From: Escherichia phage KW1E_UTAR
Length of the DNA: 45,161 nt
Direction: 5' to 3' (one strand)
Sequence record: MZ506873
This document shows positions 14,101-16,514 of the stretch, piece after piece. The notes beneath the pieces were generated by a model. The model ran no database searches. It had not been told where the DNA came from and saw only the letters and a program-made list of their open reading frames with translations. Each line of letters begins with the position of its first letter. Within the stretch, counting starts at the first letter, position 1. The translations under genes and the position numbers were made by a program.

Positions 14101-14370
14101 ATGATTCGAAAATCCGTATTAGACGACATGGACACAGACGCGGCGCTTCAGGCGCTGCTGTCACTGTCTGAGCGAAAGGCTATCAGTCAGACTGACCTGG
14201 CTGAAGGCGTGAAGCACATCATGCGCCGGGCGGCGTTCAGCGTCTTCCAGCTTCATCGCCTACAGTCCGGGCTGGACATGCCTGACGTCATGCCGTCATC
14301 GATCGAACTGGTCATCAAAGACCTGGCGCTTAACCAGGCAATCAAAAACCTGAATGAGTTACACCAATGA
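14101..14370 (+). CDS. hypothetical protein
   Basis: 89-aa ORF starting 1 nt after the upstream stop. Confidence 0.45.
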   Translation: MIRKSVLDDMDTDAALQALLSLSERKAISQTDLAEGVKHIMRRAAFSVFQLHRLQSGLDMPDVMPSSIELVIKDLALNQAIKNLNELHQ

Positions 14371-14873
14371 AGAAGCACCTGTCCGAAGCATTAACCAAAC
14401 TAGTTAGCGGGTACGAATGCCGCACCTATGGCAGCATCAAAGCGGAAGCTGTAGCGCTTGAGCAGTTAAAGATCGACCTTCACGGTCAGCTTAAGTTCTG
14501 CTATCACCATCTTACAGCGGACGCTCGCGGGTTCATCGATCGGGCCGGGAGCGCAAGCACCATGCATTACGCGTTAACGTGTATCACTGCCGCCGCTGCC
14601 GGACTGCTGACGTCTTACGAGATCGACAGGCAGATGAACGAGTCCATCATGTCGAACGTGACAGCGCAGGTGGACAGCCTGGCGATGAAGGCCACGACCA
14701 GACACGTCGGCCTACTGGATGGGCTGGCACAGCTTCAGCGCTACGACATCGAAGAGAAGAGCGGGAACCCGTTCGCCTCATACCGTTGCATTGAGGAAGA
14801 CGAGTTCGGCGACTATCTGAAGCGGGAAGATGTGATTCGTCTTCTGGGCGGGAACCCTGAAGAGTACCCGTAA
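14367..14873 (+). CDS. hypothetical protein
   Basis: 168-aa ORF, ATGA overlap. Confidence 0.5.
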   Translation: MKKHLSEALTKLVSGYECRTYGSIKAEAVALEQLKIDLHGQLKFCYHHLTADARGFIDRAGSASTMHYALTCITAAAAGLLTSYEIDRQMNESIMSNVTAQVDSLAMKATTRHVGLLDGLAQLQRYDIEEKSGNPFASYRCIEEDEFGDYLKREDVIRLLGGNPEEYP

Positions 14874-14940
14874 AATAATACTTGCGCCGGGCGTAATAGT
14901 CCGGCATTATTACGACTCACACAACAAAGGAGTGAATGAC

Positions 14941-15237
14941 ATGGCAAGAACGAAGGCTTTATCCGTACTCACGAACGCGCAGGTCTACACGTTGCGCCGC
15001 CTGGCCTCTGGTCGGTCGTACATGTGTCAGGGCAACGGGAAGCGAGCATTCGAGCGCCGCAAGGAATACCGCGTAGGCTTCGACGATGTGAACGCGCCGT
15101 CAATCCCGCCACTGATTCGGAAGGGACTCGCCAGGATTGACCCGCGCTACACCAACCCGAACCCGACCAGCTATTACCCGGTAGTTCTGACCGTGGAAGG
15201 CGTCAAGGCAGCAAAAGAGGCGGTGATTAATGATTAA
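14941..15237 (+). CDS. hypothetical protein
   Basis: ORF-track frame 14932..15237; start chosen at ATG 14941 after AGGAG. Confidence 0.5.
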   Translation: MARTKALSVLTNAQVYTLRRLASGRSYMCQGNGKRAFERRKEYRVGFDDVNAPSIPPLIRKGLARIDPRYTNPNPTSYYPVVLTVEGVKAAKEAVIND

Positions 15238-15949
15238 GCGCATGGTCATCTGGTCACTGTTCGACGGCTCCGGCTACGCGGTGAAGGACTACGCTGAAGC
15301 GGGCCACATCTGCTTTTGTGTCAACGCGGACGATGCCGACCACGGCGACTACACCAACCTGAACGCCAGGATCGAACACCACAACATTCACTACGTGAAC
15401 CGCTGGATCGACAAGGAGTTCTTTGACGACGCGGTCGCCGGGCTTATCCCTGAACTGGGTAAGCCGGACCTTATCCTTGCGTTTCCTCCGTGTACTGACC
15501 TGGCGAACAGCGGGTCACGATCATGGGCGAAGAAGCGCGAAGCGAACCCTGACTTCCAGATCGAGGCGGCACTGACTGCCCGAATCGCTGCCAATCTGGG
15601 GAATTACTTCCAGGTTCCGTGGATGGTAGAGAACCCGGCTGGCATGTTAAGCACTCTCTGGCGCAAGCCGGACGTGTACGTCGAGCCGTGGCACTTTGGG
15701 CGCTACCTGCCTGAAGGCGATGTCCATCCACACTTCCCGGAGTACATCAAAGCGCGCGACGCGTACCCGAAGAAGACGGGCCTTTGGTTCGGTCAGGGGT
15801 TCGTCATGCCACTGGCGAAGCCTGTCCCTATCGGTAAGGGGCTGTCCACTCAGTACAAGAAGTTAGGCGGCAAGTCCACGAAGACGAAGGTTATCCGTTC
15901 ACTCACTCCGCGCGGACTGGCGCGGGCAATCTATGAGGCAAACAAGTGA
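15230..15949 (+). CDS. DNA cytosine-5 methyltransferase-like protein, short and non-canonical
   Basis: Motif I-like LFDGSGY, motif IV-like DLILAFPPCTD (PPC-T instead of PCQ), motif VI-like ENP; 239 aa, no room for a typical target-recognition domain. Confidence 0.5.
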   Translation: MIKRMVIWSLFDGSGYAVKDYAEAGHICFCVNADDADHGDYTNLNARIEHHNIHYVNRWIDKEFFDDAVAGLIPELGKPDLILAFPPCTDLANSGSRSWAKKREANPDFQIEAALTARIAANLGNYFQVPWMVENPAGMLSTLWRKPDVYVEPWHFGRYLPEGDVHPHFPEYIKARDAYPKKTGLWFGQGFVMPLAKPVPIGKGLSTQYKKLGGKSTKTKVIRSLTPRGLARAIYEANK

Positions 15950-16299
15950 AGAAGATCGTCATCGCGCTATCACTGGCGCTGTTAACGTCAACGGCAGCGA
16001 ACGCCGTGGTAATCACTAAACCGCGCGACTACACGCCGGAAAACTCCGGCGCTCTGAACGCGCAAGCAGTAAACATCACTCCGGGGAAGAAGATCGGCTT
16101 CGTCACCTGTGGAGGGAATAACTTCGGCGGCGCTGGCTCGCTGGGGTGCAAGGACTACCAGGCCAAAGACAAACCCACTATTCCGTGGACCGCTTACCCT
16201 GGCTATAGACTGGGCGCAGCTATTCCGGCATCATATCGCGTGACCGGAATCAGCTTCGACAGTTACAACCATTCCGCAACTATCTACTTTGAATATTAA
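15946..16299 (+). CDS. secreted/periplasmic protein with cleavable signal peptide
   Basis: MKKIVIALSLALLTSTAANA signal peptide, two Cys in mature part; GTG start overlapping upstream stop. Confidence 0.55.
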   Translation: MKKIVIALSLALLTSTAANAVVITKPRDYTPENSGALNAQAVNITPGKKIGFVTCGGNNFGGAGSLGCKDYQAKDKPTIPWTAYPGYRLGAAIPASYRVTGISFDSYNHSATIYFEY

Positions 16300-16307
16300 G
16301 GGGCATC

Positions 16308-16514
16308 ATGTTAACGATTATTCTGTGGGTTCTCGGCGCTGTACTCACCTGGCGACTGTGTAGTCGCGACAGCACCACGCCGGAAGGCATCATGAAGTTC
16401 GCGCTGGGAATCCCTGAGCGAATCGCGGCTTCGGCGTTCTGGCCTGTCTGTGCTGCATACGTACTCTATGACGCGGTCATGGAGTGGATCGAAGAACGAC
16501 GCAATCGCCCGTAA
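16308..16514 (+). CDS. small membrane protein
   Basis: 68 aa, hydrophobic N-terminus MLTIILWVLGAVLTW. Confidence 0.45.
   Translation: MLTIILWVLGAVLTWRLCSRDSTTPEGIMKFALGIPERIAASAFWPVCAAYVLYDAVMEWIEERRNRP

Follow-up and report, generated by a model that had tools for sequence, protein, structure and literature searches.

The window analysed here is the whole 45,161-nucleotide (nt) stretch of Escherichia phage KW1E_UTAR (sequence record MZ506873), and the subject of this report is one of its genes, which encodes a short protein of 239 amino acids (aa) resembling C5-cytosine methyltransferases. In the reading that we consider the probable one, the product is an orphan phage DNA 5-methylcytosine (m5C or 5mC) methyltransferase with an anti-restriction role, whose compact scaffold resembles that of DNMT3 and which would work by the usual covalent mechanism with Cys and Glu. 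The observations behind this reading concern the predicted fold of the protein, the conservation of its residues, its architecture, its distribution among phages and its independence of the neighbouring genes. Both the gene and its annotation were already public, the product being identical to GenBank QYA57201.1 ('DNA cytosine methyltransferase' of Escherichia phage KW1E_UTAR), and the protein is a typical representative of an unusually short family that is very widespread among phages. The gene and the elements assigned to it are located as follows.

15215–15220, + strand: Shine-Dalgarno-like AAGAGG, 9 nt 5′ of the ATG at 15230, read from the sequence.
15230–15949, + strand: compact C5-cytosine methyltransferase-like gene, 239 aa, ATG start, TGA stop at 15947–15949, from the list of open reading frames (ORFs) and the sequence.
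15254–15274, + strand: motif I, SLFDGSG, residues 9–15, the S-adenosylmethionine (SAM)-binding loop after strand 1, placed by conservation and DNMT3B alignment.
15482–15499, + strand: motif IV, FPPCTD, residues 85–90, with the presumed nucleophile Cys88, placed by conservation and alignments.
15629–15637, + strand: motif VI, ENP, residues 134–136, at the end of strand 5 (131–135 in the model), placed by conservation and the model.
15794–15892, + strand: short segment, residues 189–221, between the motif VIII-like strand and motif IX, in place of a target-recognition domain.
15893–15931, + strand: motif IX, IRSLTPRGLARAI, residues 222–234, placed by hhalign to Dcm.

The AlphaFold2 model of the 239-aa protein, for which 30 homologues were used as input, reached a predicted local distance difference test score (pLDDT) of 91 and a predicted template modelling score (pTM) of 0.90, and a Foldseek comparison with the PDB ranked the DNMT3A and DNMT3B catalytic domains first (E about 1e-6). 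According to this model the protein has the SAM-dependent C5-cytosine methyltransferase fold. The first-pass annotation, made from the sequence alone, had described the gene as C5-methyltransferase-like and had proposed structure prediction as a check; the description is borne out by the predicted fold and by the conservation of the catalytic Cys and Glu. When a profile of the close relatives was searched against PDB chains, a weak N-terminal match to DNMT3B was obtained over motifs I and IV (SLFDG..., SPCNDLS; E 0.6), while the single sequence and a broad profile retrieved nothing relevant from the PDB chains. An hhalign comparison with the single Dcm sequence recovered motif IV and motif IX alone, with weak E-values.

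Residue conservation was assessed in two sets, one of 30 close relatives and the other of 79 diverged representatives at 31–55% identity. Residues F11, G13, S14, G15, P87, C88, T89, E134, N135 and P136 are invariant in the close relatives, and C88, E134, P136, P153, Y179, W186 and P194 are still invariant in the diverged representatives. The three motifs named in the first pass, namely FDGSG, a motif IV with PPC-T, and ENP, are all present, at residues 11–15, 85–90 and 134–136, respectively. The first of them fits the pattern F-x-G-x-G and reads SLFDx(S/T)G in the wider family, similar to the SLFDGIATG of DNMT3. Motif IV lies within DLILAFPPCTDLANSG (residues 80–95), and its Cys88, found in 79/79 diverse family members, pairs with the DNMT3B sequence SPCNDL and with GFPCQP of Dcm. 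The residue that follows P87-C88 is Thr, where the canonical motif IV has Gln; since DNMT3 has PC-N (PCNDL), PC-T in place of PCQ has a precedent. In ENP, the flanking E134 and P136 do not vary and N135 occurs in 76 of the 79 representatives, with Pro at the position where the canonical ENV has Val. Judging from its position in the predicted fold, ENP would correspond to motif VI, with Glu134 presumably donating a proton to cytosine N3.

From here on we infer that the protein is catalytically active, that its substrate is DNA and that it counters restriction. In the proposed sequence of events, the target cytosine would be flipped out of the helix after replication, C6 would be attacked by Cys88 of motif IV, with protonation of N3 by Glu134 of motif VI, and C5 would receive the methyl group of SAM. 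Phage DNA carrying this 5mC would be protected from host restriction enzymes, and the separate Dam-type enzyme of the phage would play a comparable part for adenine.

Regarding the architecture, two features account for the small size of the protein, namely a recognition region reduced to ~34 residues between motifs VIII and IX and the lack of motif X. A target-recognition domain usually occupies 80 residues or more between motifs VIII and IX. In the 239-aa protein, ~34 residues separate the strand at 183–188 from motif IX (residue 222), compared with ~105 residues between motifs VIII and IX in E. coli Dcm, so a recognition domain of normal size does not fit, in agreement with the earlier remark that the protein is too short to hold one. 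The expected motif VIII strand (183–188) is preceded by Y179 and K181, has T183 at its start and contains W186, all four of them invariant. The segment at residues 189–221 that follows shows a lower pLDDT (75–81) and low column conservation. Within this short linker between motifs VIII and IX falls the least conserved stretch, at about residues 195–211, which differs between the KW1E_UTAR protein, gp52 of Pantoea phage vB_PagS_AAS23 (AAS23) and the Webervirus homologue, and which thus appears to behave as expected of a specificity loop. The canonical motif IX reads R-x-L-T-x-R-E-x-A-R; in this protein it is represented by IRSLTPRGLARAI, which pairs with the Dcm motif IX, PRRLTPRECARLM (54% identity over 13 columns by hhalign, E 0.05), and whose residues R223, P227 and G229 are each at least 90% conserved. 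The corresponding landmarks in Dcm are QHRER for motif VIII and QFGNSVVVPV for motif X, the latter ~30 residues after motif IX. We put forward only tentatively that no natural C5-cytosine methyltransferase may have a smaller architecture than this family, with its ~230 aa, its ~17 variable recognition residues and its lack of motif X, and that DNA recognition could take a non-canonical form such as a DNMT3-like oligomer or a very short or relaxed specificity.

The family in question is PHROG 757 ('DNA methyltransferase'), whose profile matches residues 2–239 of the protein at positions 12–219 of 247 (E 7.6e-80). It comprises more than 1,250 homologue clusters at 90% identity and 2,089 clusters at 50% identity; a match of this strength to a family of this size indicates that the ORF and its motifs are not a product of chance. 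Nearly all full-length members measure 210–260 aa; shortness is thus typical of the family and does not reflect truncation. Matches to PHROG 757 were present in 1,510 of 50,697 phage records (~3%), mostly in phages of Escherichia, Klebsiella and Salmonella. The carriers include Drexlerviridae (Webervirus, Warwickvirus), Kagunavirus, RB49 and other large myoviruses, and the family, or the annotation 'DNA cytosine methyltransferase', also occurs in T1-like, Dhillonvirus, rV5-like and RB49-like phages. In the source records, relatives are annotated as 'putative DNA cytosine C5 methyltransferase', 'Dcm' or 'Dcm-like C5 cytosine methyltransferase'. The suggestion of an unusual or new enzyme is therefore unsupported, given the GenBank annotation of this very protein and the presence of its family in ~3% of phage records.

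Two further observations concern the membership of the family. Homologues 45–53% identical occur in records labelled 'Campylobacter phage' (MG065650, MG065680, MG065685, MG065669) and 'Streptococcus phage MBBL140' (OR786094); their genomes are sized like those of coliphage groups, and the records are probably mislabelled or contaminated. One member of 401 aa (P0246) bears a long N-terminal extension of low complexity, rich in proline and acidic residues, with a eukaryotic or giant-virus-like look, and the compact module may accordingly exist outside bacteriophages.

With respect to DNA as the substrate, a metagenomic protein of 563 aa (P0261) carries the compact module (residues 3 to ~250) fused to a D12-class N6-adenine methyltransferase (303–546; PF02086, E 2.5e-48), which links the module to DNA methylation. 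Reports on related phages are also available. The homologue in AAS23 (locus L069 in our set), 55% identical to the KW1E_UTAR protein, gave no conserved domain by BLASTP and a 99.7% HHpred probability to a Shigella cytosine methyltransferase, and restriction digests of the AAS23 virion DNA indicated Dam and Dcm methylation (PMC8004638). The DNA of the Webervirus KP36 is EcoRII-resistant, yet its authors did not find a cytosine methyltransferase gene (PMC3620542); in another Webervirus, RAD2, a homologue 46% identical is present. A Dcm-like CCWGG target is only a candidate, and transfer of the CCWGG specificity from AAS23 and KP36 was not adopted, as host Dcm confounds the digests and the putative recognition loop differs. 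The window contains 162 CCWGG sites (observed/expected 0.85) and 269 GATC sites (observed/expected 1.06), and their retention is compatible with protection by methylation. Two other sites are strongly depleted in the window, with CCCGGG observed once against 19 expected and GGTACC absent against 5.2 expected, and AAGCTT reaches about half of its expected count; this suggests avoidance of SmaI/KpnI-type sites alongside methylation for other sites.

Several results weigh against the reading as an active DNA methyltransferase. Scans with Pfam and NCBIfam gave no match above thresholds for the 239-aa protein, and PF00145 did not match it even at E values up to 10. A PF00145 search had been recommended in the first-pass annotation; among the relatives, this profile matches motifs I–IV in 14 of 30 (three of these exceed the gathering score, on motifs I–IV only). 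A profile of the C-terminal half found no match among solved structures, and that half is tied to methyltransferases through comparison of the predicted structure only. The canonical QxRxR of motif VIII is not recognisable in the protein, and motif X (G-N-(S/A)-V), which helps SAM binding in canonical enzymes, is absent, the chain stopping 5 residues past the motif IX alignment. In addition, the subfamily of the KW1E_UTAR protein has Asn32 after strand 2, where 75 of the 79 wider-family representatives have Asp, and an Asp at this position usually binds the SAM ribose. In the literature, no direct biochemical assay of any PHROG 757 member was found; what it offered for this family were annotation statements and the restriction digests of AAS23 and KP36. 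Possible methylation by host Dcm confounds these two digest reports, and since the AAS23 and Webervirus homologues have a different putative recognition loop, their apparent specificity is not simply transferable. Phage C5-methyltransferases with disrupted motifs VIII–X showed at most weak activity in E. coli (Burke et al., PMC8256090), and in the BASEL study such genes showed no simple relation to restriction resistance (PMC8594841).

The absence of motif X, the unrecognisable motif VIII, the Asn in place of the acidic residue after strand 2 and the two studies just cited are also the points in favour of an alternative in which the methyltransferase fold is kept and the enzyme is weak or inactive, acting instead through binding (e.g., sequestration of SAM, or occupation of DNA or of a protein involved in host defence). 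We regard this as unlikely, because a nucleophilic Cys and a motif VI Glu that are invariant across 79 diverged sequences are hard to explain without catalysis. The fusion of the module to an active-type Dam domain in P0261 and the reported Dcm methylation of AAS23 DNA (PMC8004638) also speak against it. The inactive fold that the first-pass annotation had offered as an option loses ground for the same reason, namely the invariance of the catalytic residues.

As an observation on the same subfamily, residues 32–41 (15323–15352) form an extra conserved segment, N-x-D-D-A-D-H-G-x-Y; D37-H38-G39-x-Y41 and H50 are invariant, and there is also an insertion of ~8 residues. The Asn32/DHG segment may constitute an alternative cofactor contact.

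The DNMT2 branch of the C5-methyltransferase fold methylates tRNA cytosine, and a substrate of this kind, that is, RNA such as tRNA cytosine instead of DNA, was also considered for the KW1E_UTAR protein. We give it a small chance, in view of the higher scores obtained for the DNA enzymes DNMT3, CmoX, DNMT1 and M.HhaI, the fusion of the module to a DNA adenine methyltransferase in P0261, the location of the gene beside helicase and replication genes in other phages, and the restriction-digest reports, which point to DNA (PMC3620542, PMC8004638). It is more improbable still that another group is transferred (e.g., carboxymethyl, as in CmoX) or that 5mC is the first step of a hypermodification pathway; the latter was rejected, as the partner enzymes were not present at the loci examined.

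As to the genomic context, the first-pass annotation had drawn attention to the coupling of the gene with one for a secreted protein. The features concerned, together with the second methyltransferase of the phage, are the following.

14932–15237, + strand: upstream gene, 101 aa, PHROG 26489, stop at 15235–15237, from the ORF list and a profile match.
15946–16299, + strand: exported protein, 117 aa, PHROG 8805, GTG start, 'hypothetical protein' in the same phage.
15946–16005, + strand: putative Sec-type signal peptide, residues 1–20, MKKIVIALSLALLTSTAANA followed by VV, cleavage after ANA, from the sequence pattern.
16308–16514, + strand: hydrophobic, probably membrane protein, 68 aa, directly 3′ of the exported-protein gene.
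769–1539, + strand: Dam-type N6-adenine DNA methyltransferase, the second orphan methyltransferase (PF05869, E 1.8e-38).

The overlap and the signal-peptide character of the downstream protein were both confirmed from the sequence. The GTG start at 15946–15948 overlaps the methyltransferase TGA stop (15947–15949) in the tetranucleotide GTGA, with GAGG 7 nt upstream, and the cleavage site was placed by the AxA rule as a prediction. This 4-nt arrangement, which is shared by Klebsiella phage vB_KM5a1-KLB22 (KLB22), is what speaks for a functional pair formed by the methyltransferase and the translationally coupled exported protein, a possibility to which we attach hardly any weight and which was rejected on comparative evidence. 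The neighbour test covered 80 IMG/VR loci with a methyltransferase homologue, 3 kb on either side and on both strands. Homologues of the exported 117-aa protein or of the downstream 68-aa protein occurred in 0 of the 80 loci, and for the upstream 101-aa protein one weak match was obtained, in AAS23, and none otherwise. The downstream genes at these loci were varied, including those for a 474-aa helicase-like protein, a 107-aa protein and a 58-aa Cys-rich protein, among others, and methyltransferase homologues often overlap unrelated downstream genes by 1, 4 or 8 nt. Conversely, in three related phage contigs (L084, L085 and L086, the first two of ~45 kb), a homologue of the upstream gene is followed by a homologue of the exported-protein gene and then by one of the 68-aa gene, with the large terminase 0.6 kb beyond the latter and no methyltransferase within the 5.5–6.3 kb read per locus. 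Each gene therefore occurs without the other, contrary to the idea of a meaningful pairing. Because the upstream and exported-protein genes are adjacent in these sister phages, the methyltransferase gene represents an insertion or deletion between them and the pairing is incidental. Within this lineage of phages the methyltransferase gene is an optional insert, and the 4-nt overlap is normal operon compaction. Overlapping starts and stops are indeed the rule in the operon, so the methyltransferase/exported-protein overlap is not special: the methyltransferase ATG and the end of the upstream ORF share the 8 nt ATGATTAA (15230–15237), and further overlapping genes occur in the same block (e.g., 14101–14370 and 14367–14873).

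The exported-protein family is small (17 homologue clusters) and keeps the signal-peptide pattern with its AxA site, two invariant Cys, a PGYRLG motif and a C-terminal YFEY. The AlphaFold2 model of this protein was poor (pLDDT 65), and it gave no significant fold match (best E 0.48). A further homologue lies, without a methyltransferase, in a Mu-like prophage (L087, 3001–3573; Logan SRR12398552), between a Gp11_C-type gene and GemA, from which it follows that the small exported protein moves between unrelated phage types. As for the 68-aa protein, its N-terminal third (~26 residues) weakly matches relatives lacking the methyltransferase in which the gene position is equal, and the annotation of its KLB22 orthologue lists a transmembrane domain and a signal-peptide domain. 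The Dam-type ORF is listed from a TTG, and its true start may be further downstream.

KLB22 is the nearest genome in the phage collection (90% nucleotide identity) and has the same gene order, its methyltransferase orthologue being annotated as 'C-5 cytosine DNA methylase'. As a siphovirus it has a tape-measure protein, and its tail-tip proteins are lambda-like. It was assigned to the proposed family 'Ca. Mavericviridae' (PMC11845039).

When compared to known systems, the KW1E_UTAR protein differs from the canonical enzymes E. coli Dcm and M.HhaI (PF00145), which carry PCQ where it has PC-T; it also lacks motif X and QxRxR and misses every Pfam threshold. The TET-associated C5-methyltransferases (Burke et al. 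2021) and CmoX of phage S-B43 are likewise phage-encoded, have the C5-methyltransferase fold and act after replication, and some clades of this group also have degenerate motifs VIII–X; in contrast to the KW1E_UTAR locus, where no such partner is found, they adjoin a dioxygenase, a glycosyltransferase or a Cx-SAM synthase. The best structural match, the catalytic domain of DNMT3A/DNMT3B, shares just 17% sequence identity with the protein. With its small target-recognition domain (TRD), it offers the closest resemblance to the shortened recognition region, whereas DNMT3 keeps motif X, is ~50 residues longer and forms a dimer or tetramer with regulatory domains. The best-documented example is AAS23 gp52, which differs in its genomic position, in its neighbouring genes and in the variable loop (NSNPGWKS compared with GLSTQYKK in the KW1E_UTAR protein). 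It belongs to the same family and architecture, aligning over its full length at the identity given above, and is likewise an orphan enzyme co-occurring with a Dam gene. Lengths are similar, at 227–257 aa, and the two proteins have every conserved motif in common, N32, DHG, PPCTD, ENP and IRSLTPRG among them.
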